From a virus (taxonomy: Duplodnaviria; Caudoviricetes), in IMG/VR virus record IMGVR_UViG_3300030330_003470, positions 1 through 51,651 of that record: 51,651 bases of DNA; one strand, given 5' to 3'. The notes under the pieces were generated by a model. That model ran no database searches and was not told the origin of the DNA. It saw nothing but the letters and a program-made list of their open reading frames with translations. The position numbers and the translations under genes were made by a program. This document shows, piece by piece, positions 9,110-51,069 of this stretch; within the stretch, counting starts at the first letter, position 1; each line of letters opens with the position of its first letter.

Positions 9110-9164
9110 ACTACTTAAATAATATACTAAAAATTAATGAGATTAACAAGTATAACAAATATAG

Positions 9165-9200
9165 TAAAAAAAGAAAACCCCCACTAGTGTGAGGGCTCTC
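9165..9200 (-). terminator. Intrinsic terminator after the 449-aa fibre gene
   Basis: Minus strand gagagccctcac-acta-gtggggttttc followed by a T run. Confidence 0.75.
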
Positions 9201-9241
9201 CTGTTGTTAGCCACAGAAACCAACAAACTGCGACAATATTA

Positions 9242-10591
9242 TTATCCCATTACTGAGTATGTTACATCAGTAGAAAGATTTCCACCAATATCTGTAATTG
9301 TTAAGTTGTCATTATCATTAAACGTTACAGTATAATCTACACCTGCATAATATGCATTACCTCCTGCGGTAGCATCTCTTACAGTTACCATTACATTAAG
9401 TTTGCTTAAACCATGAGCTACTGCTATAGTACCTCCAGCACCTGGAGCAGGTATAGTAGCAGGTCCGTTAAATTTAGCAACATCAGCAGCTATACTTAAT
9501 TCAGTTGCAGAAGATAGCATAGTTGTTCCACTTCCTTGAACAATACTTTTAACAGCTAAAGCTGGTCCTACACCATCATTTACTAAATCATTACCACTTC
9601 CAACAGTAGCTAATGTTACATCAGTTGCTGGAGAAGTATTTGTAATTTCTAAAGTATCCGTTGCAGGATCTATTGTAGTTGTAATACCACCTGCTCCAAC
9701 AACATTTAAGTTATCAGTAGTAGTATCAGCAGTTACAGCAGTACCCGCATCATCAGTAAATCTTGTCCATACATTTTTAACATTTTTTAATGGAGCAGCT
9801 ATAGTACCATCACCATCAAGACCCGTAGTTGCATCTATTTCTATCCCTGTAAATGCAATTCTCATTGCTAATGCAGTTACATCTACATCAACATCAATTC
9901 CTTCTCCTGAAAGAACTGTAAATGTATCTAATGAAGATGTTGCAATTGCAGAACCTACAGAAGACCAAGTATATGTTCCTGGATCAGTATCTGTAATATC
10001 AAATTGAGCATAAGCATTTGCATGAACTACGGTTCCTGGTACAGCAGATGCACCTGTAACATGTCCAAATGTATCAAAAGTAAAGTTAATAGATTGGATA
10101 AATGAGTTACCAGTATTATTGCTAGATAAATCAGTTACAGAAGATGTATCTTCATGAGATACAGTTACTGTTCCTGCTACAGCATCTGGTGCTACATCAA
10201 TTCCAGGTCCAGCTAATACTTTTGCTAGAATTTGATTAGTAATGATAGGAGCAACCCATATTTCAAATGCAGCCATATCAGCAGATACAGTATAAGTTGT
10301 TACAGAAGTAACAGGATCTGTTGTAGGCACTACATCAATAAATGCACTACCTGCTACTACACTAGCGGGTGGAGCTACTTTACTACATACATAGTCTACT
10401 AATTTTGTGATAGCACTATCTAAATAATCATTTCTAGAGATTACAACATCTCCATCACAAGTTAAATCTACTCCTGTATAAACAATGCATTGCATGTTAA
10501 ATACTTCTGAGCAGGCTGGTGGACATGTTGCCGATACCGTATAAGTACCAGTACATCCACAATTTGGGGTATTACAAGTTGAACAAGCCAT
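9242..10591 (-). CDS. Tail/head fibre-like structural protein, 449 aa
   Basis: Cys-rich N-terminus (CIVYTGVDLTC); Thr/Gly/Asp-rich fibre repeats (AGPGIDV, SGEGIDV, GAGGITT); C-terminal VAHGL...VMVTV motif. Confidence 0.65.
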   Translation of the reverse strand: MACSTCNTPNCGCTGTYTVSATCPPACSEVFNMQCIVYTGVDLTCDGDVVISRNDYLDSAITKLVDYVCSKVAPPASVVAGSAFIDVVPTTDPVTSVTTYTVSADMAAFEIWVAPIITNQILAKVLAGPGIDVAPDAVAGTVTVSHEDTSSVTDLSSNNTGNSFIQSINFTFDTFGHVTGASAVPGTVVHANAYAQFDITDTDPGTYTWSSVGSAIATSSLDTFTVLSGEGIDVDVDVTALAMRIAFTGIEIDATTGLDGDGTIAAPLKNVKNVWTRFTDDAGTAVTADTTTDNLNVVGAGGITTTIDPATDTLEITNTSPATDVTLATVGSGNDLVNDGVGPALAVKSIVQGSGTTMLSSATELSIAADVAKFNGPATIPAPGAGGTIAVAHGLSKLNVMVTVRDATAGGNAYYAGVDYTVTFNDNDNLTITDIGGNLSTDVTYSVMG

Positions 10592-12311: not shown

Positions 12312-12343
12312 ACTTTCTATTATTTATAATATACAAATTTTTA

Positions 12344-14863: not shown

Positions 14864-15004
14864 TTATACTTTATTTTTCTTTAATTTAGCTTCATAAGCT
14901 ACGATACAACTGCTACATACTGCTTTACCATCTGATGCTGTTCTTCTTTGACATCCACATGATAATTGTCTTCCACAGTTTGGACATTTTGAGCCTGCTG
15001 CCAT
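14864..15004 (-). CDS. Small Cys-rich protein, 46 aa (possible Zn-binding)
   Basis: Below the ORF-track cutoff. Translates to MAAGSKCPNCGRQLSCGCQRRTASDGKAVCSSCIVAYEAKLKKNKV, fills the intergenic gap and has an A-rich leader. Confidence 0.75.
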   Translation of the reverse strand: MAAGSKCPNCGRQLSCGCQRRTASDGKAVCSSCIVAYEAKLKKNKV

Positions 15005-15024
15005 AATTTGTTGGTTTTATTTAT

Positions 15025-17816: not shown

Positions 17817-18072
17817 TATTTTTTTTATTGTAGTCTTTTTCTATTTCTCTTTCTTCAAGCTTTTCTATCTTTCTATATAATCTATCTGCTTTTCTCTTTC
17901 TACCTTCATCAACAGCTTTCCCATATCTAGTTTTAAGATTTTTAATACGGTCTTTTGGATCTTTTCCAAATACAATGCTGCCACCTTCAAGTTGTGAACC
18001 TACTGCTATGCCCATCTTAGCTCTGCGCATTTCACCAAGAACTTCTAAAGGATTTCTTTTTTTATTTTTCAT
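17806..18072 (-). CDS. Small basic hypothetical protein, 88 aa
   Basis: ORF track; overlaps both neighbours. Confidence 0.6.
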   Translation of the reverse strand: MKNKKRNPLEVLGEMRRAKMGIAVGSQLEGGSIVFGKDPKDRIKNLKTRYGKAVDEGRKRKADRLYRKIEKLEEREIEKDYNKKNNVK

Positions 18073-18278
18073 TTCTTTTTCTTTCTTAGTTTACCTAATG
18101 TAATTGCAAATCTAGCACGTTGAGCAGTCTTACCTTTACCCTTAGCTTTTTCTCTAAGCCAAGACTTTTTAATTCTCTTATTCTTTTTATCATAACCACC
18201 TTGTCTTTTAGCAGTTGCTGTAAGAGAACCTGGCTTTTTAATTGCCTTCTTGATATTTAACTTCTTCTTTTGCGCCAT
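18069..18278 (-). CDS. Small very basic protein, 69 aa
   Basis: IKKAIKKPGSL...KGKTAQRARFAITL, a motif I recall from small proteins of diverse phages. Confidence 0.7.
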   Translation of the reverse strand: MAQKKKLNIKKAIKKPGSLTATAKRQGGYDKKNKRIKKSWLREKAKGKGKTAQRARFAITLGKLRKKKK

Positions 18279-18280
18279 CT

Positions 18281-18346
18281 TTAATAATCCCAGTAGATAA
18301 AAATTTGATCACTTTCTTCTTCTGAGTCTTTAAAAGTTTTATTCAT
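18281..18346 (-). CDS. Possible 21-aa acidic micro-peptide
   Basis: MNKTFKDSEEESDQIFIYWDY fills the gap between the promoter motif at 18350-18357 and the next ATG. Confidence 0.35.
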   Translation of the reverse strand: MNKTFKDSEEESDQIFIYWDY

Positions 18347-18367
18347 ATAGTAATATACAAAAAATCA

Positions 18368-18637
18368 TCAGCATTTCCATCTTCTTCTTGCTTTTCTTAA
18401 ACGGCTGTTTGGATCTTTAGCAGCTTTAGGAAACTTTTTCATTTGACCAAGAGATCTTGCACAATAACTTTTCTTTCTAGCTCCACCACCTGGTTGAGGT
18501 GCTTTTAAGTTAGAGCCAGTTTTTCTATTAATCATTTTACGACCCTTAGCAGTAAGACCACCTTTTTTAGACTTACAACCATTTTTGATTGTACAGCCTT
18601 TCATAGCTCCTTTCTTCTTACTCTTTTTAGCAGGCAT
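18368..18637 (-). CDS. Small basic protein (DUF6321-like), 89 aa
   Basis: GGLTAKGRK...GSNLKAPQP...RKKSYCARSLG...DPNSRLRKARRRWKC. Confidence 0.75.
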   Translation of the reverse strand: MPAKKSKKKGAMKGCTIKNGCKSKKGGLTAKGRKMINRKTGSNLKAPQPGGGARKKSYCARSLGQMKKFPKAAKDPNSRLRKARRRWKC

Positions 18638-18903
18638 TACTTTTTCTTTTTAAGTCTACGCTTATCGTGATTATATCCTTTAGCTTTTAGTTCAAGGTGC
18701 TTTTTCATTGTACCAGCTCTAACAGCTTTACCTGATTTTGAATACATCATGTGAGCTTTAAACTTCTTTTTCTTTGCGGCACCACCTTTTTTATAAACTG
18801 ATGTAGCCATGGGTTTAGCAGCTTTACTTGAAGCGCCTCCCATCATTTTCTTTTTTTTGGGTCTACCTACTTGAGATCCATATGTTCCTTTACCTTGTGG
18901 CAT
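18637..18903 (-). CDS. Small basic protein, 88 aa
   Basis: Start moved to MPQGKGTYGSQVGRPKKKK; the 19128 start overlaps another gene. Contains KMMGG and YKKGG. Confidence 0.7.
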   Translation of the reverse strand: MPQGKGTYGSQVGRPKKKKMMGGASSKAAKPMATSVYKKGGAAKKKKFKAHMMYSKSGKAVRAGTMKKHLELKAKGYNHDKRRLKKKK

Positions 18904-18919
18904 GATTTTAAATTTTAAG

Positions 18920-19192
18920 TTATTTCTTCTTTTTAGTTGTTTTTCTTTTTCTAATAGCACTGGTTCTTCTACCCATGCCAACTCTTTTCTTTTCTGCAAC
19001 AGCTTTAGCTTTTTGAGATTTAGATAAAGATCCCCATGTTCTAGGAGTCTTTTTAGAAACTTTTTTACTAGGTCTACACTTCTTAGTTTTCTTGTTCTTA
19101 GAAGAGCCACAAGGATTTCCTTTTTCATCCTTCCACTTTTCTTTGAACCACCTTTTCAGTGCAAGACCTTTAGCTGTTTTTCTTACTGCCAT
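18920..19192 (-). CDS. Small basic protein, 90 aa (LKRWFKEKW motif)
   Basis: GLALKRWFKEKWKD...PCG...KCRPSKKVSKKTP; coupled to the upstream gene. Confidence 0.75.
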   Translation of the reverse strand: MAVRKTAKGLALKRWFKEKWKDEKGNPCGSSKNKKTKKCRPSKKVSKKTPRTWGSLSKSQKAKAVAEKKRVGMGRRTSAIRKRKTTKKKK

Positions 19193-19398
19193 TATCCTAT
19201 CTTACCTCTACGTTTTCTACATTTAGCAATATATCCACTTGCATAGGCAGATGGAAATACTCTATACTTAGCTTTAGCTTTATGATAGCAAGCATCTTTC
19301 TTAGACTTTTTAGCCTTAGACTTTTTTTTCTTAGATCCTCCTTTTCTGAAATATTCTAAAATTTCACCATCAGTATTAATTCTTCCGTAACCAGGCAT
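19192..19398 (-). CDS. Small basic protein (DUF5872-like), 68 aa
   Basis: KDACYHKAKAKYRVFPSAYASGYIAKCRK. Confidence 0.7.
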   Translation of the reverse strand: MPGYGRINTDGEILEYFRKGGSKKKKSKAKKSKKDACYHKAKAKYRVFPSAYASGYIAKCRKRRGKIG

Positions 19399-19399
19399 C

Positions 19400-19630
19400 T
19401 TATTTTCTTTTAAGGGTTCTCTTTCTAGGTAAAGTTTTCTTAGGTGCAGCAGATGATTTACCAGCTATAGTCTGTAGTTTCTTAACTTCAGCCATAGCAG
19501 CTTTTCTAACATCAGCCATAAGTTTTGCATCCTTTTGGATTTCTTGAGCTCTTTGTAAGGTGCTCATTGCTGATTGCACTTCAAACTCACGCATTTCTTT
19601 TTTATTCATCATGTTAGTAATTTTAAGCAT
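19400..19630 (-). CDS. Small basic hypothetical protein, 76 aa (or 70 aa from a later Met)
   Basis: ORF track; helical with a Lys-rich tail. Confidence 0.65.
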   Translation of the reverse strand: MLKITNMMNKKEMREFEVQSAMSTLQRAQEIQKDAKLMADVRKAAMAEVKKLQTIAGKSSAAPKKTLPRKRTLKRK

Positions 19631-19818
19631 TATCCTTTATAAGTTTTCATGGATTTAATTGCTCCACCACCTCTAAGCATTCTTCCTTGAATGGTTCTAG
19701 GGTTATTAGAATATTTAGGCATTCTTTTGCCGCAACCACAACCACCACCATATTTCATAATAGCATCTGGTCCAGTTGTTCTATTCATATCTTCTTTCAT
19801 TTTACTATAGTAAGCCAT
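19630..19818 (-). CDS. Small basic protein, 62 aa
   Basis: Contains MKYGG and MLRGG; A-rich leader. Confidence 0.65.
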   Translation of the reverse strand: MAYYSKMKEDMNRTTGPDAIMKYGGGCGCGKRMPKYSNNPRTIQGRMLRGGGAIKSMKTYKG

Positions 19819-19837
19819 ATCTTTTATTTTTTAAATG

Positions 19838-20101
19838 TTACATACATCTACCTCCACGTTTTGAGTTTCTTGTAAACTTGACACCACCTCCGTGTCCATA
19901 TTCTGGGACACCACCCATTGCCATGTAACCCATTTTATTTCTTACAGCAGTAGGTAATTTAGATAGTCCTTTATTATCTGAAGGAACTGGTTTTAATGAA
20001 CCACCTGCTTTATAACCTTTCATTTTAGCACCACCTTTTCCGTAACCTTTCATTTTGGAACCTCCTGTTCCATACATCATTTTTTTTCCGTATCCTGGCA
20101 T
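19838..20101 (-). CDS. Gly/Lys/Met-rich repeat protein, 87 aa
   Basis: Five [YM]xxGG units. Confidence 0.7.
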   Translation of the reverse strand: MPGYGKKMMYGTGGSKMKGYGKGGAKMKGYKAGGSLKPVPSDNKGLSKLPTAVRNKMGYMAMGGVPEYGHGGGVKFTRNSKRGGRCM

Positions 20102-20119: not shown

Positions 20120-21139
20120 TTAAGTTCTCCAATATGTTTCACAGGACTTAGTTAAATCATCTAAGACATCTTCATTAAGAGGATTCTTTAAGAATTCTAC
20201 CACATCAGAAACATTTCTTCCCATCATGACATTTTTCTTATTATGATAAATATGTCCATCGCTCTTAGTAATAATATACTTAAAAAAGCTGGAATCTTTA
20301 ACAATACTTCTAATTTTTAATGATTCCATATCTGAATTTACTACATCTAAGAATCCATTAACTGCTCTTTCCATATTACTTTCAGCTCCATCTCCATGAA
20401 TGTAGGTATCCATATTTTCATATAGAACATCCAGAGGAGTAGACTTTTTATACTGTGTGCTACTTGCATCTACAACTTTTGCTACATAAAATAATTTAGT
20501 ACTATTCTTGTCAAACAACTTTTGTAGTTCAGCTAGTGCTTTATTTCTAAGCTTCTTATATTCAGTTCTACTAGATACAGTTTCCGCATCTTTATCTAAA
20601 TAAAACTTAGGTGGTCTTGGTTTTGCCTTTGCATCTTCATAACTTTTTGCAATTAAAGAAAACCCTCCTGCCTCAATAGCATATAATTTAATTCTGTCAT
20701 AAGGATCGTTCATGTTAAGAAATAAAGGTTCATTTCCTACACTGATATCTATCTTATTCCAGAATTCATTATTATCTGGTTTTAATAATTTTACTTTATT
20801 CCAAAAATCTTTATCTTCTGGATCAAGTATGTTAGAAGCTAATTCTGCCTCTAAATCTGCAACAGATTCTCTAATCTGTTTTACTTTAGCTTCTCTAGCT
20901 TCTTTGGAAAGTTTTTTGACTTCTGGAGCAAACTCATTAAGACCTGTTAGATATCTATTAATACCATTAATCTCTAAACATGCTAATTGTTCTTGATGTT
21001 TTATTCCATCAAATAAACTTAATCCATAATTTTCTAATCCCATATTTTCTGATCGTGCATCAAAATAGGGTCTAATAGTAATCTTTGATTCTCTACTAGC
21101 TGATGGTGTCTCCACCATTGTAAATTTTTCTTTTGCCAT
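20120..21139 (-). CDS. Conserved capsid-module protein, 339 aa, function unknown
   Basis: Directly downstream of the capsid gene; C-terminal MMGRNVSDVVEFLKNPLN resembles the crAss-like gene at this position. Confidence 0.6.
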   Translation of the reverse strand: MAKEKFTMVETPSASRESKITIRPYFDARSENMGLENYGLSLFDGIKHQEQLACLEINGINRYLTGLNEFAPEVKKLSKEAREAKVKQIRESVADLEAELASNILDPEDKDFWNKVKLLKPDNNEFWNKIDISVGNEPLFLNMNDPYDRIKLYAIEAGGFSLIAKSYEDAKAKPRPPKFYLDKDAETVSSRTEYKKLRNKALAELQKLFDKNSTKLFYVAKVVDASSTQYKKSTPLDVLYENMDTYIHGDGAESNMERAVNGFLDVVNSDMESLKIRSIVKDSSFFKYIITKSDGHIYHNKKNVMMGRNVSDVVEFLKNPLNEDVLDDLTKSCETYWRT

Positions 21140-21179
21140 TGGTTATTATTTTTGTTGGTTATTATTTTGTTGGTTATTA
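21139..21179. repeat. Three direct copies of TTGGTTATTA (minus strand TAATAACCAA) in a leader
   Basis: Read directly: ttggttattattttt-gttggttattatttt-gttggttatta. Confidence 0.85.
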
Positions 21180-22879: not shown

Positions 22880-24172
22880 TTAAAATCTTTTGAACATATT
22901 ATTCTTTCTTTGTACTGTTGGTTTTCTTGTTGGTTGTTTTTTTCTTCTAGTATTTGAACTTGAGTCCTGAATAGAAGAAGAACTATTCTTTTGTGACTGA
23001 GCAGTTTTTAATTGTCTTACTGTTTTTTCAACAGCAGTTCTAGATCCTTGTTCTTTTATTTTACTTTTATAACCATTTGGATCAGACAAAAGCCATAATG
23101 CTTCTGCAATTAAATCATGTCTTGGTTCTACAAACTGATATTTTTCAAGAAGGTGACCTAGTAAATTTGTAGGCTTTCCTGATATAGAAGGATAATTAGG
23201 TTGAACTAATCCAGAATATAAATGATTTTGAACTTTTCTATCTAACTTAATATCTCCTAATTTACCATGTGAAAGAGTATTGTATACATTATCCATATAT
23301 TGAGCAGCTGCTTCCTCTTGTTGAGCTTTCTTATGTTCTTGCTCTGCCAATTGTCTTGCCACTATCTGCTCTTGCATTTTATCTAACTTTGGCTTAAATT
23401 GATTAGCTTTTTTAGATAATCTTTCTGTATCAGCCCAAGTTTCTATTTCTTCTTCTATTTCTTCTGGTGTACCAAAATTAGTAGCAGTTAAATATTGTCT
23501 TGCAATTTCTGCTTGATGATTTTCATTATTTGGATCTAGTTCCATAACTTCTTCCACATGTGAAAGAGTTCTAAATAATCCTTTCAAATCTTGTCCACCA
23601 TCAGCAACATATTTAGCAGCTACTTTAAGTTCATCAGGAAGAGAATTAAAAAATTCTTTAGGAGTATCTTGTCTAATCTTAGCTTCCCTTTCTTGAAAAT
23701 TAGCTTCAAACAGTTCTCTGAAATCTTTAGTAGTATATTCTTCAATTGGTTTGTCATCATCAAAACCAAAAAGAGTACCTTCTTCAATCATCTTATTAGC
23801 TAAATCAACTAGACCACTCTTATCAGTTTTAGGTCTACCTGTTTTAGCTTCTCCTGTTTCCTCTTCAGTAATAGCATCATCTAGTTCAGCTAATGCCTCA
23901 TCAACTAACTCTTTTGTTTGTTCTTCATTAGTTACAGGCTCTTCTGTTTCTTCAGTTGTAGTCTCAGTCTTGTCAATGAACGTTGTGTCAAGCTCTTCTG
24001 GTTTAGAGAAGATATTTGACTTTTTATCTTCTACCTCTGGTTCAACTTCTTCTGCTGGGAGCATAACACTTTCAGCACCAGGCTGACCAAAGATTTCATC
24101 TAAATTTACATCTACTTCCTCTACCGTTGTAGAGTCATTTACTTGAGTTTCCTCATTTAATTCTTCTGCCAT
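22880..24172 (-). CDS. Putative scaffolding protein, 430 aa
   Basis: Very acidic N-terminus, coiled coil, basic C-terminus; lies between portal and capsid. Confidence 0.65.
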   Translation of the reverse strand: MAEELNEETQVNDSTTVEEVDVNLDEIFGQPGAESVMLPAEEVEPEVEDKKSNIFSKPEELDTTFIDKTETTTEETEEPVTNEEQTKELVDEALAELDDAITEEETGEAKTGRPKTDKSGLVDLANKMIEEGTLFGFDDDKPIEEYTTKDFRELFEANFQEREAKIRQDTPKEFFNSLPDELKVAAKYVADGGQDLKGLFRTLSHVEEVMELDPNNENHQAEIARQYLTATNFGTPEEIEEEIETWADTERLSKKANQFKPKLDKMQEQIVARQLAEQEHKKAQQEEAAAQYMDNVYNTLSHGKLGDIKLDRKVQNHLYSGLVQPNYPSISGKPTNLLGHLLEKYQFVEPRHDLIAEALWLLSDPNGYKSKIKEQGSRTAVEKTVRQLKTAQSQKNSSSSIQDSSSNTRRKKQPTRKPTVQRKNNMFKRF

Positions 24173-24269
24173 TTGTTAGTTTTTGTTGGTTATTACTTTA
24201 ATATAAGAAATAAATATTAAAAATTTAAAATTCTATAAAAATTTTTAGTTAATTTTTTGCATTATATAG

Positions 24270-29523: not shown

Positions 29524-30028
29524 ATCCTAATCCTATTCCTCCCCTTACACTACTTTGTTGTTCTTCCTGAAGATCTTTATAGGCACCTTTAAATGATTCT
29601 CTAATTTGTTGGTATTTAGCAGCTGCATTTACTAAAGAGTTTATATTACCATCTCTACCATGTTCAATTGGCGTAGTTTGCATATATCTACCTAATCTAT
29701 CTAACATAGCTGCAATACCTTTATATGCTCTAGATGTAGGTGTCTCATACATTTTTTCACAAAATTTAAGTGCAGTCCATACATCATCATCTTCTGTTGA
29801 AAACTCACCATCTACTTCTTTCATTATAACTTCCTCTTTTTCATGCTCAGGAGTATGAAAGAAGGGATTCATATCTGGATTAGGACATGTCATATAAAAG
29901 AGGTACTGATAAATCTTTAAATAATCATCTGGATAATTATCCATTATATCCTTAAGTGACTTTAATGTATAACAATGTTCTGTAGGAACTACTTTGCCAT
30001 TTTGTATATCAAATAGTTTTGCAATCAT
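29513..30028 (-). CDS. Conserved protein upstream of terL (possible small terminase), 171 aa
   Basis: Overlaps the terL start; helical with C-terminal VRGG. Function inferred from position only. Confidence 0.5.
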   Translation of the reverse strand: MIAKLFDIQNGKVVPTEHCYTLKSLKDIMDNYPDDYLKIYQYLFYMTCPNPDMNPFFHTPEHEKEEVIMKEVDGEFSTEDDDVWTALKFCEKMYETPTSRAYKGIAAMLDRLGRYMQTTPIEHGRDGNINSLVNAAAKYQQIRESFKGAYKDLQEEQQSSVRGGIGLGYDQ

Positions 30029-32120: not shown

Positions 32121-32404
32121 TATGCAGTTTCTTTTTTAAGAGTTCTTTTTTTCTTAGCAGCTGTTTGAACAGGTTCTGGCATAGGTGCCCCTTGTTCTTG
32201 TTCAAAATCTTCAGGTGGCGCCATCATTTGTGCATATGCCATTTGAATTTGAGTTCTTTTAAGTCTCATCTCATCAATTTCTGAAAGCATTTTTTCATAT
32301 TCAAACTGAGCTTCTAAATAAGGCATTGATTCTTTGTAGAACTTAAGCATTTCTTCTTTCTTTGCTTTTAATTCTTCTGGAGATAAATTTTCTGGATTTT
32401 CCAT
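32120..32404 (-). CDS. Coiled-coil hypothetical protein, ~94 aa
   Basis: Start moved to MENPENLS because the 32437 start overlaps the TATATTTG promoter element. Confidence 0.65.
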   Translation of the reverse strand: MENPENLSPEELKAKKEEMLKFYKESMPYLEAQFEYEKMLSEIDEMRLKRTQIQMAYAQMMAPPEDFEQEQGAPMPEPVQTAAKKKRTLKKETA

Positions 32405-32465
32405 TGGTTTATTTTTTAAATTTAACCAAATATACAAATAAAGTTTAAACTATAGAAGTTTAAAT

Positions 32466-39750: not shown

Positions 39751-40119
39751 TTAATATAAACTCTTATAAAATAATGTAAAGCTAAATCCATAAATTACTC
39801 TTGCAACTATTACATGTAACAGCACAGGCCAAAAACTACAGTAGTTATACGCTAAGAAAAATATAGCAATAAATAAAAGTAGATTTCTTAGTAATTTAAA
39901 CAAATGCCAAGCATCAGTAATTCCTACAAAAAAGGTAGTGCTTCCCCAAAATTTTGGACCTGCGGCAGGTTCACCACCTTTATACTTATTTTTCCAAGAT
40001 ATAGCAGGATCCCAAAATTCTGAATTAAATTTACTAAATATACTTATTGAATAATGAAACTGTATTGTATCCATTACAGCTTCAGCAAGACCTGCAAGTG
40101 CTATAAATATAATATACAT
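39751..40119 (-). CDS. Membrane protein, 122 aa
   Basis: Several hydrophobic segments; SWKNKY and TDAWHLFK motifs. Confidence 0.7.
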   Translation of the reverse strand: MYIIFIALAGLAEAVMDTIQFHYSISIFSKFNSEFWDPAISWKNKYKGGEPAAGPKFWGSTTFFVGITDAWHLFKLLRNLLLFIAIFFLAYNYCSFWPVLLHVIVARVIYGFSFTLFYKSLY

Positions 40120-40535: not shown

Positions 40536-40846
40536 AACTTTTCTATTCTTTTTTGTAAATATGCTAATGCTTTTTGTAATTCTTTTTTCTGTTTAGCTTT
40601 ATCCCCTTTTTTTGATTTTACTACATACTTAATTACATTACCTAAGTAGTAATCTTTGTCTAGATTCCAGGCTTCTATTACATTAGATACATCATAAGTA
40701 TTATCCTTTTCTGATCTAATATTTATATTATAGTCTGTTAATGAAGGCTTTACCTTTTCCTCAATTGGGCTTTTAGGAGTGTAATTATATGGAGTTTTAT
40801 CATGCATGTTATTATACCAGTCTTTTGTTGATTCCTTTATTCCCAT
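40532..40846 (-). CDS. DUF3310-like protein, 104 aa
   Basis: VIEAWNLDKDYYLGNVIKYV...ELQKALAYL. Confidence 0.7.
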   Translation of the reverse strand: MGIKESTKDWYNNMHDKTPYNYTPKSPIEEKVKPSLTDYNINIRSEKDNTYDVSNVIEAWNLDKDYYLGNVIKYVVKSKKGDKAKQKKELQKALAYLQKRIEKL

Positions 40847-41136
40847 ACCATTACAATATCATGAATTAACACCATCATTTTTAACTTACCGTCCATATCT
40901 ATAATCTCAGCATTATGAAGAGCACCAGTCCGAACATACACTTTATCCCCAGCCTTAAGATCATTAACTTCTGTACCTACAGCATAAACATTAAGATGAG
41001 TCCATTCTTTCATTAACTCTTTCTCTTGTTCTTTTTCCATGTCATCAGTAAGTATAAGATCTAACTTACCTTCTTCTTTCTTTTTCTCAGGCTTATCTAA
41101 CATAACCCTGTTTCCTCTCAATATAAATTTATTCAT
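40837..41136 (-). CDS. groES: GroES-like co-chaperonin, ~99 aa
   Basis: LRGNRVML...VYAVGTEVNDLKAGDKVYV...HDIVMV. Start moved to MNKFIL, downstream of the TATATTTG element. Confidence 0.75.
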   Translation of the reverse strand: MNKFILRGNRVMLDKPEKKKEEGKLDLILTDDMEKEQEKELMKEWTHLNVYAVGTEVNDLKAGDKVYVRTGALHNAEIIDMDGKLKMMVLIHDIVMVWE

Positions 41137-41168
41137 TTCTTTGTTGGTTTTGAACAAATATAGTAAAA

Positions 41169-43022: not shown

Positions 43023-43529
43023 ATGAACAATTTAAATTTTATGAGTGATCAACCAGTTGAACTAGTACAAGAATTCTATGAAAGCTTTGGCTATGAAGCC
43101 ACTGCTAGACAAGATGATGGTAGTACTGAAATGTTAAAGAACTGCACCTTTACCGCAAAATACTTTGCACCTGCTAAAGGATCAGGAGTTACTGAAGGTA
43201 CTGAACCAGATTGGAAAACTACTGACAATGGTAAGCAATACTGCATAGTTATGGGGTATGCTAAAGTTAAAGGTTTCCCAGAGTTGTCTGGCTTACACAA
43301 GTGTTTGTTGAATAAAGTATCATATGATAGTGGTGACTTTGAACTAGGTGTACTGTATTCAAGTATATCTAAGATTCCATTACTTGATGGTGATGGTAAC
43401 AGACACCCAGAGTTCAATGATATCTATTTCACTGTGTTTGAAAACAAAGCTACTAATAATGACATGTCAGATTTAGCTGCTGATAAGTTCAAGCAATGGA
43501 TGGCTCAAAGAAAGGCTGCTACAAAATAG
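43023..43529 (+). CDS. Hypothetical early protein, paralog A, 168 aa
   Basis: Clearly homologous to 43679..44185. Confidence 0.85.
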   Translation: MNNLNFMSDQPVELVQEFYESFGYEATARQDDGSTEMLKNCTFTAKYFAPAKGSGVTEGTEPDWKTTDNGKQYCIVMGYAKVKGFPELSGLHKCLLNKVSYDSGDFELGVLYSSISKIPLLDGDGNRHPEFNDIYFTVFENKATNNDMSDLAADKFKQWMAQRKAATK

Positions 43530-43678: not shown

Positions 43679-44185
43679 ATGAATTTAAACCTTATGAATG
43701 ATGCATCTGTAGAAGATGTACAAGCGTTTTATGAATCCTTCAATTTTGAAGTTGAGTCAGGCCAAGACAAAGATGGTAATGCTACCACTGTAATGCAAAG
43801 AAATTGTTCTTTTAGAGCAACACACTTTACACCAGAGAGTGGTAATGAACCAGCTACTGAACCTTTTTGGAGAACTACTCCTAATGGTAAAGAGTATTGC
43901 CTTGTCATGGGTATTGCTAAAGTAAAGGGTTTTCCTGAAATATCAGAAGAGCCTAAAATTTGCATTCTTAACAAAACAAGTTATGATGCAGGAGACTTTG
44001 AATTAGATACCCTTTATAGTTCTATATGTAATATTCCTTTGCTTAATGCACAGGGAGAAAAGCATGAAGACTTTAATGACATTTACTTTACAGTATTTGA
44101 GAATCAAGCTACAAACAATGACATGTCTGACATGGCAGGTAGTAAGTTTGCTCAATGGATGGCAAGTAGAAAACAAGAGGCATAG
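43679..44185 (+). CDS. Hypothetical early protein, paralog B, 168 aa
   Basis: Homologous to 43023..43529. Confidence 0.85.
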   Translation: MNLNLMNDASVEDVQAFYESFNFEVESGQDKDGNATTVMQRNCSFRATHFTPESGNEPATEPFWRTTPNGKEYCLVMGIAKVKGFPEISEEPKICILNKTSYDAGDFELDTLYSSICNIPLLNAQGEKHEDFNDIYFTVFENQATNNDMSDMAGSKFAQWMASRKQEA

Positions 44186-50812: not shown

Positions 50813-51069
50813 TAGATAAAAATAAAAATTTAGATGAGCCTTCTTATGTATTAGTAAGAGCAAAAGGTGATATGTTGTATGATAATCATAGAGGATATTT
50901 TAAGTATAAAGATAAAAATGATGTTCATAACATAGTTAAGTTGGGTAGTAAAGAAGCTTTATCAGCCGCTGTTACTACAGCAAAAGCTCTTGCTCATGAA
51001 ACAGCAAAGCCTTTATGGTATAGAGTTATGAATTATTTAGAAGATAAATATAGAATAAAATATGGATAG
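50809..51069 (+). CDS. Hypothetical protein, 86 aa
   Basis: ORF track. Confidence 0.6.
   Translation: MIDKNKNLDEPSYVLVRAKGDMLYDNHRGYFKYKDKNDVHNIVKLGSKEALSAAVTTAKALAHETAKPLWYRVMNYLEDKYRIKYG

Follow-up and report, generated by a model that had tools for sequence, protein, structure and literature searches.

A short RNA hairpin, which lies between the last gene of a late operon and an intrinsic-terminator-like structure, is conserved together with that terminator in a large group of crAss-like phages, far beyond the single genome in which it was noticed, and its loop is complementary to a word (the "box") that stands in the leaders of a few of the phages' own genes. The hairpin and the box probably constitute a functional RNA-RNA pairing system, and the reading favoured here, to which a probability of roughly 55% is assigned, is that a conserved antisense RNA at the 3' end of the operon transcript pairs with the boxes in the leaders of helper genes and damps their translation. 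If this is true, the phage tunes the stoichiometry of its own capsid assembly by means of an RNA seed and a dedicated leader box. The loop/box system is kept as far as phage phi4:1, whose major capsid protein is only about 26% identical, and it occurs in hundreds of marine and freshwater contigs. It bears on translation control in the Bacteroidota, which lack Shine-Dalgarno sequences and do without Shine-Dalgarno pairing.

The window and its genes

The stretch of DNA that was analysed, called the window below, is a phage record of 51.7 kb (51,651 nucleotides) whose late genes lie on the minus strand. PHROGs matches were obtained for its major capsid, portal and terminase, and the nearest annotated relatives of its major capsid protein belong to Lbo-JY46 (28% identity), the Cellulophaga phages phi4:1 and phi17:2 (26%) and csAssE-Sib (23%). 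The major capsid, portal, terminase and ring genes are homologous to those of crAss-like phages and follow a conserved order, and this homology and order suggest that the window belongs with these phages, in the Epsilon/Lightbulbvirus neighbourhood; phi17:2 has been assigned to the Epsilon group of crAss-like phages (PMC7886860). No tRNA was found in the window.

The gene labels used in the original prediction stand in a softened form. The GroES label has no Pfam match, and it is a four-sequence profile that matches GroES structures (E 4e-4); the scaffold and fibre labels are softer than claimed, their basis being position and weak leads (an atlas lead of 0.82). The last gene of the operon (9242-10591, minus strand), which encodes 449 aa, is likely a fibre gene, being syntenic to the tail fibre gene gp046 of phi4:1; its C-terminus is freely swapped among relatives, and the hairpin element remains 3' of its stop. 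The 339-aa protein (20120-21139) has no relative in the genome contigs searched and no sequence match in the PDB, and its structural model gives no fold match at E<=0.001; a part of about 65 residues in the model weakly resembles the RecA C-terminal domain (Foldseek E about 0.2), and gp33 of crAss001, its positional counterpart, carries a dsDNA-binding annotation. A row of small Lys/Gly/Met-rich genes, variable in relatives, lies at 18069-20101, between the ring gene and the 339-aa gene; one of them matches several PHROGs of unknown function, while two tandem plus-strand genes of 168 aa each (43023-43529 and 43679-44185) have similar N-termini and no PHROG match.

Structure of the hairpin element

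The minus strand from 9234 to 9210 reads GUCGCAG-UUUGUUGGUUU-CUGUGGC, exactly as predicted: sequence, fold and covariation identify a seed hairpin (9210-9234) which begins 7 nt past the stop of the 449-aa gene and in which a 7-bp stem with two G-U pairs carries the 11-nt loop UUUGUUGGUUU (9217-9227), the predicted seed, with its conserved core UUGGU. An A/C-rich linker follows (9203-9209), and then an intrinsic-terminator-like hairpin with a U tract (9163-9202), which consists of a stem of 14 pairs (9202-9171) and the U tail and has counterparts behind the seed hairpin in relatives. All of these features are on the minus strand, and the element, which lies within the 3' UTR, shares its intrinsic terminator with the mRNA, as is expected of a 3'-UTR-derived small RNA.

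The assertion that the hairpin folds only on the transcribed strand is borne out by the folding energies, which for the 25-mer are -7.1 kcal/mol as minus-strand RNA (z -4.0) and -0.6 kcal/mol for the plus strand; the same 25-mer as DNA gives -1.1 kcal/mol. A promoter hairpin of the kind used by N4-type virion RNA polymerases, which is stable as single-stranded DNA and has a short loop, was considered and rejected in view of this DNA energy, the 11-nt loop and the G-U-rich stems.

When upstream bases are included, ViennaRNA prefers another fold in the window, in which the loop is paired to the linker behind the stem; in the window's subgroup this competing fold is predicted to be about 4 kcal/mol lower. 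The predicted probability that the window's loop core is unpaired is 0.02 with 14 upstream nt and 0.34 when the RNA starts at the stem, and the seed-exposed fold is the predicted minimum for an RNA that starts at the stem's first base. Over 115 elements the loop core is predicted to be unpaired with a median probability of about 0.9, and is predicted to be open in 80% of them, and the hidden seed in the window's subgroup may reflect either an error of prediction or a processing switch. A pseudoknot between loop and linker was rejected because the geometry leaves no connecting bases and because the L226 lineage, one of the distant lineages described below, has no linker.

The nearest candidate start of a transcript ending in the hairpin would be a promoter-like GTATATT motif before the 555-aa gene (12328-12334, minus strand), a word which ranks third among leader 7-mers in six genomes. 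Because this motif precedes the 555-aa gene, the shortest hairpin-ending transcript would hold none of the window's boxes. The motif recurs ahead of late gene blocks, at 12328-12334, at 9121-9127 and before the 467-aa gene, and TATATTTG, which we take to be a promoter of Bacteroidota type, likewise recurs before late gene blocks; both words are likely late promoters. No conserved promoter was seen before the stem in the first set of loci described next.

Conservation of the element

A first set of loci was assembled using the downstream 193-aa gene as an anchor (45 loci, plus the best 80 of 244). Loop, stem and terminator lie directly after the stop of the variable upstream gene in 97 of the 99 first-set loci, the other two of which end before reaching the site, and the element is present in 19 of 19 further loci. 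Three of these 19 have an exonuclease-like gene inserted behind the element, which keeps its place beside the fibre gene. Two distant lineages were reached via the ring protein (the best 80 of 599 and the best 80 of 285), and all 63 of their loci which span the site carry the element (62 by script, L453 by eye), as do all 16 downstream stretches that were examined.

The loop is the nearly unchanging part of the structure. Its core UUGGU, on which the detection script anchors, is kept in 121 of 121 distinct elements, and UUGUUGGUUU is the sequence in 105 of the same 121 (with the same anchoring, and with six script mis-calls dropped). A scan with the stem that left the loop free gave 60 matches, 45 of them true elements which all have a UUGUUGG loop and 15 of them chance matches, and found no lineage with a wholly different loop. 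Stems, by comparison, are wholly different between lineages with pairing retained. Among 24 distinct close sequences 94.6% of cells are paired, and the covariation score exceeds that of 500 of 500 shuffles; elements form 6.8 of 7 pairs with their own arms as against 4.9 with foreign arms (37 elements, interrupted stems left out). With the register set by Watson-Crick pairs only, 29 G-U and no A-C combinations occur in 37 elements picked across lineages, and because G-U wobble pairs are kept and A-C is absent, the hairpin is an RNA structure on the coding strand.

Bacterial genomes were scanned for the loop plus a terminator; of about 600 loci, 120 were read, and most of these proved to be chance matches, the sole clear element being L226, a phage contig binned with Sediminibacterium. 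This contig, 59 kb long and crAss-like, sits in a Chitinophagaceae assembly, which is either a hint of the host or a binning artefact, and about 930 stretches in the viral collection match its lineage. The Flavobacterium locus L218 has loop and terminator and no stem. Variations on the arrangement were seen in a few loci: a non-coding insert of about 120 nt with internal repeats stands between the fibre stop and the hairpin in L029 (9770-9880) and L015 (925-1040), and in L424 (6160-6270) the loop occurs in tandem copies before the terminator, the first of them without a clear stem.

Leader boxes and their gene specificity

The box sites reported for the window were verified, all of them on the minus strand. 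The exact loop complement AAACCAACAAA stands 2 nt before the ATG of the 46-aa Cys-rich gene (box 15007-15017, gene 14864-15004) and 3 nt before that of the 99-aa GroES-like gene (box 41140-41150, gene 40837-41136). Matches of 10/10 are found before the 430-aa likely scaffold gene (box 24182-24191, gene 22880-24172) and twice (21151-21160 and 21166-21175) before the 339-aa gene, which follows the major capsid gene and whose leader (21140-21175) holds these two full boxes and one partial box. A partial box, AAACCAA, which is weakly conserved, overlies the start of the 94-aa gene (32404-32410).

Two counts of the kind that the original prediction had proposed were made. Over the whole window nine matches with at most one mismatch were counted where 3.0 would be expected, a number reached in 0 of 100 shuffles; two of the nine fall within genes. 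The word ACCAACA stands in four of the 69 leaders, compared with 0.19 after the leaders were shuffled (0 of 300). These four leaders are also the top four of the 69 in predicted pairing with the loop, at -12.4 to -11.7 kcal/mol, with a gap of 4.7 kcal/mol to the fifth at -7.0. The same word emerges when leaders are searched de novo. In the window and five near-complete relatives, with simple first-ATG gene calls that yield 704 leaders, ranks 1, 2 and 4 among 5097 7-mers, as judged against shuffled leaders, are taken by AACCAAC, ACCAACA and CCAACAA, which are the loop's complement; ACCAACA is present in 21 of the 704 leaders against 2.5 expected and its reversed control in one, reversed controls in general not being enriched, although these counts are not independent because the genomes are related.

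Tallies of AACCAA in unique leaders across all loci with the element show which genes carry the box. It is found in the leaders of 54 of 58 scaffold genes, 60 of 70 genes of the 339-aa type and 83 of 107 Cys genes, and it is nearly absent before the major capsid (1/57), auxiliary capsid (0/108), ring (1/118) and 180-aa (0/116) genes. The regulon as first proposed holds for the scaffold, 339-aa and Cys genes and shrinks elsewhere, about half of the GroES-like leaders (10/21) and few of those of the 94-aa gene (3/11) having the word; it occurs also before the 193-aa gene (13/90) and the last-fibre genes of the L226 lineage (12/32). Each phage's own loop ranks targets of the scaffold, 339-aa and Cys types at or near the top of its leaders. 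Conserved complementary sites are thus present at the translation starts of distant genes, a further feature of 3'-UTR small RNAs, and loop and box are both kept, on the same orthologous genes, in very distant lineages; the contrary outcome that had been named as damaging to the idea, conserved leaders without a conserved loop, is not what is observed.

The distance from box to start codon ranges from 3 to 23 nt overall, the box ending 3-8 nt before the AUG in two lineages and 15-21 nt before it throughout the L226 lineage. In that lineage (L366-L445) the leaders of the scaffold and 322-aa genes share a further conserved word, AACUACAU, which abuts the AUG.

The original prediction had allowed that the motif might be just an A-rich translation enhancer, in which case the box would be a general Bacteroidota signal and the hairpin a plain 3' stabiliser before the terminator. 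Such a reading draws on the finding that A at positions -3, -6, -12 and -13 promotes initiation in Flavobacterium (PMC6847099), positions which the box covers or adjoins, and on the box pattern being somewhat commoner before ATG than its mirror in five Bacteroidota genomes (80 versus 49). An enhancer would be expected on the most highly translated genes, however, and because the box is absent from the major and auxiliary capsid leaders (and rare before the ring gene), with expression rank here inferred from capsid stoichiometry, it is no general enhancer. Nor is it common in host leaders as an enhancer should be, since AACCAAC or ACCAACA occurs in just 2 of 242 leaders from 17 Bacteroidota-labelled loci, one of which was later found to be a phage. 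A mere stabiliser, for its part, would not preserve the sequence of an 11-12 nt loop while the stem is replaced. The combination is largely refuted, and is very improbable.

The genes that do carry the box are likely to be non-virion assembly helpers, because the pair of genes flanking the capsid gene in phi4:1 and phi14:2 has no MS/MS "structural" note, which the capsid, ring and portal genes have, and because gp31 and gp33 are unnamed in the available text of the crAss001 structure paper by term search (PMC10172136).

Co-variation of loop and box

In most loops a G faces the leader base that follows ACCAA, and of the 243 sites that go with such loops 99 have C there; with A or U at the facing loop position, a C occurs at 0 of 19 sites. 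The only clean paired change against close relatives is that of G008, which combines a UUUGG loop with ACCAAA in the scaffold leader: in a tree of a quick kind, of the seven neighbours nearest to it six combine the G loop with ACCAAC, and the seventh has no box called. Predictions fixed in advance were also checked. All nine loci with ACCAAC leaders had the G loop as predicted, and of the five checkable loci for which a variant loop was predicted two were confirmed (L506, and L511 with a variant other than the one predicted), while L507, L520 and L480 were not variant.

The rule linking loop to box runs in one direction, because the tree indicates that the leader C was lost several times without a change in the loop and because L467 and L453 have changed loop bases with uncompensated leaders. 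Pairing of leaders with their own loops exceeds that with permuted loops (p=0.004, for eight loop types that were chosen after looking). When loops were swapped, four own loops ranked first, that of L467 fourth and that of G008 fifth (fifth of eight, summed over its two leaders). The co-variation is therefore suggestive, and offers good support, short of proof, for a link between loop and box.

Proposed mode of action

Under the favoured reading, the fibre-operon transcript is predicted to end in the hairpin, whose loop, complementary to the boxes in the scaffold, 339-aa, Cys-rich and GroES-like leaders, would pair with them and block ribosome entry; pairing in trans is likely. As the late RNA accumulates, the duplexes would lower the synthesis of the non-virion assembly helpers, and the major and auxiliary capsid genes, which have no box, would run on. 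The acting form could be either the intact mRNA end or a cut-off RNA of about 70 nt, and for the window's subgroup the prediction is that cleavage at the first base of the stem would favour exposure of the seed. Steric blocking fits better than a positional ribosome signal because the spacing is variable and copies occur in tandem, and damping is favoured for the same reason and because the precedents repress: pairing at initiation regions represses the targets of GibS in Bacteroides (PMC11697453) and the target of c4 RNA in P1/P7 (PMC12197685). It speaks against damping that the universal core amounts to only 6-7 bp and is A-U rich, that the seed is predicted to be mostly hidden in the window's subgroup, that three of the five checkable variant predictions failed and some loop or leader changes are uncompensated, and that in phi4:1 structural genes have the box too.

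The same pairing might have another effect, the hairpin promoting translation or stability as a stand-in for the anti-Shine-Dalgarno sequence or tethering the box-bearing mRNAs. In two lineages the distance from box end to start codon is 3-8 nt, as for a Shine-Dalgarno site, the capsid-flanking genes of crAss001 carry GGAG at the same place, and Bacteroidota ribosomes sequester their anti-Shine-Dalgarno sequence (PMC7797042). A spacing of 3 to 23 nt, with 15-21 nt in the L226 lineage, is nevertheless unlike a positional ribosome signal, the A/C-rich leaders have no evident structure to be opened, and the box is missing from the genes for the most abundant proteins, so that an effect of this kind is unlikely. 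Its most elaborate form, in which the hairpin would serve a private translation-address system and switch on the scaffold, the chaperonin and other head-assembly helpers in hosts that ignore Shine-Dalgarno sequences, with loop and box having drifted together in separate lineages, is improbable.

Complementarity would be incidental or secondary if loop and box were each maintained by a protein, for example a translational repressor of the phage that binds the box and, at the loop, a nuclease or a protein that protects the 3' end, or if a single DNA-binding protein read the same word in both orientations. The near invariance of the short core AACCAA beside loosely kept flanking pairs would fit such a protein, several loop or leader changes are uncompensated, and the 339-aa protein and crAss001 gp33 offer, respectively, the weak RecA C-terminal likeness and the DNA-binding annotation noted above. 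For this reading to hold, chance must nonetheless have made an invariant loop the exact complement of the top-ranked leader word, and the reading has to accommodate a hairpin which folds as RNA on one strand only, a box tied to start codons rather than promoters (it precedes the internal Cys gene), and the joint absence of loop and box from three other crAss-like phages together with the matching variant in phi4:1, both described below. It is judged rather unlikely.

The main target might instead be host mRNAs, the phage leaders serving as a buffer or being a by-product. The box is present at some host start regions, and the phage small RNAs PreS and VpdS act on host RNAs (PMC12197685), but among the phages the box stays with the same orthologues as far as phi4:1 and the hosts are likely diverse, which makes host targeting quite improbable as the chief role.

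Relation to known regulatory RNAs

The remark in the original prediction that nothing of this kind had been described in these phages agrees with a literature search, in which no paper on the element was found, and with Rfam, which, c4 RNA included, gives no match at the gathering score (best sub-threshold score 24 bits against 90). The loop words are absent from six supplements of a catalogue of viral structured RNAs, other supplements of which may hold the element as an unnamed candidate (PMC10690425).

As far as sequence can tell, the element works like known loop-seed antisense RNAs and resembles the class of 3'-UTR small RNAs. The RNAIII of Staphylococcus aureus is an uncut mRNA whose 3' domain pairs in trans, through C-rich hairpin loops, with several mRNA start regions; it reads the universal Shine-Dalgarno word, whereas the loop here would read a private word that precedes only 3-5 phage genes. 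Phage P22 is said, from work by Wyckoff and Casjens in 1985, to control its scaffolding protein apart from the coat protein within one late region by autoregulation, which is mediated by protein where the control proposed here is predicted to be mediated by RNA.

A close phage counterpart is the c4 antisense RNA of P1/P7, which, as is proposed here, uses loop sequences to pair around the ribosome-binding site in an mRNA of the phage and so blocks translation (PMC12197685). Those phages are temperate and their host uses Shine-Dalgarno sequences, and c4 controls an antirepressor and immunity in them, whereas the present element has a single loop fused to a late terminator, several scattered assembly-gene targets and a host group without Shine-Dalgarno sequences. 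CisR of Vibrio cholerae is similar in having a 3'-UTR seed that shares the mRNA terminator and in targeting the start region of a phage gene, but it is encoded by the host, whereas seed and dedicated box are here both phage-borne, the box lying at the phage's own genes (PMC13250501). SviR, of the PLE satellite, is a trans-acting small RNA active in lytic infection, when it lowers the translation of a phage gene that is putatively structural; it is directed by a satellite against its helper phage, in contrast to the self-regulation predicted here (bioRxiv 2022.04.08.487710). GibS and FopS of Bacteroides share with the proposed mechanism seed pairing at initiation regions in a phylum without Shine-Dalgarno sequences, and differ as host small RNAs with their own promoters and a single-stranded 5' seed (PMC11697453). 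Reviews and abstracts mostly describe phage small RNAs whose action concerns hosts, lysogeny or helper phages. The present analysis contributes counts of gene specificity across three lineages, variant loops together with predictions about them that passed or failed, and a test system in culture.

Cultured and named relatives

The cultured phages phi4:1 and phi17:2, which are 99.5% identical over the hairpin stretch, carry the element with a variant loop that matches the leader at the gp063 position. In phi4:1, on the minus strand at about 50,945-51,025 of KC821632, an 11-bp stem with a UUUUUGGUUUUU loop and a terminator follows the tail-fibre gene gp046, and the leader of gp063, at the position of the 339-aa gene, holds AAAACCAAAAA and ranks first of 188 leaders for the phage's own variant loop; gp046 itself ranks third and gp065, the scaffold-position gene, eighth. 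The box of phi4:1 is also found before structural genes, namely gp046 and, in part, the major capsid gene. Since both phages are in culture and their variant loop and box match, the question can be put to a direct test, and Bacteroidota could gain a tool in the form of an orthogonal loop/box pair.

In the late stretches that were read of crAss001, phi14:2 and csAssE-Sib, the canonical loop is missing, and the genes that have the box elsewhere lack it. In crAss001 the leaders of gp31 and gp33 (L546:27056-27103 and 29846-29893) have GGAG where the lineages studied here have AACCAA, and the leaders of the capsid and auxiliary capsid genes do not, so that GGAG possibly represents a different control of the same two capsid-flanking genes. 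A weak hairpin with a UUUGUUGUUA loop stands before a terminator in csAssE-Sib (L548:25005-25080), where one leader (39865-39905) has the complementary UAACAACAA, a single case which may be due to chance.

The syntenic region of Lbo-JY46 contains a similar loop with a terminator; in this phage the leader of the orthologue of the 339-aa gene ranks joint second of 166. This phage (PP438436; L131, L192, L193) is on record as a Leptolyngbya phage, yet it is syntenic with the crAss-like group and the leaders of the late genes that were read are A-rich, so that the host label may deserve a check.
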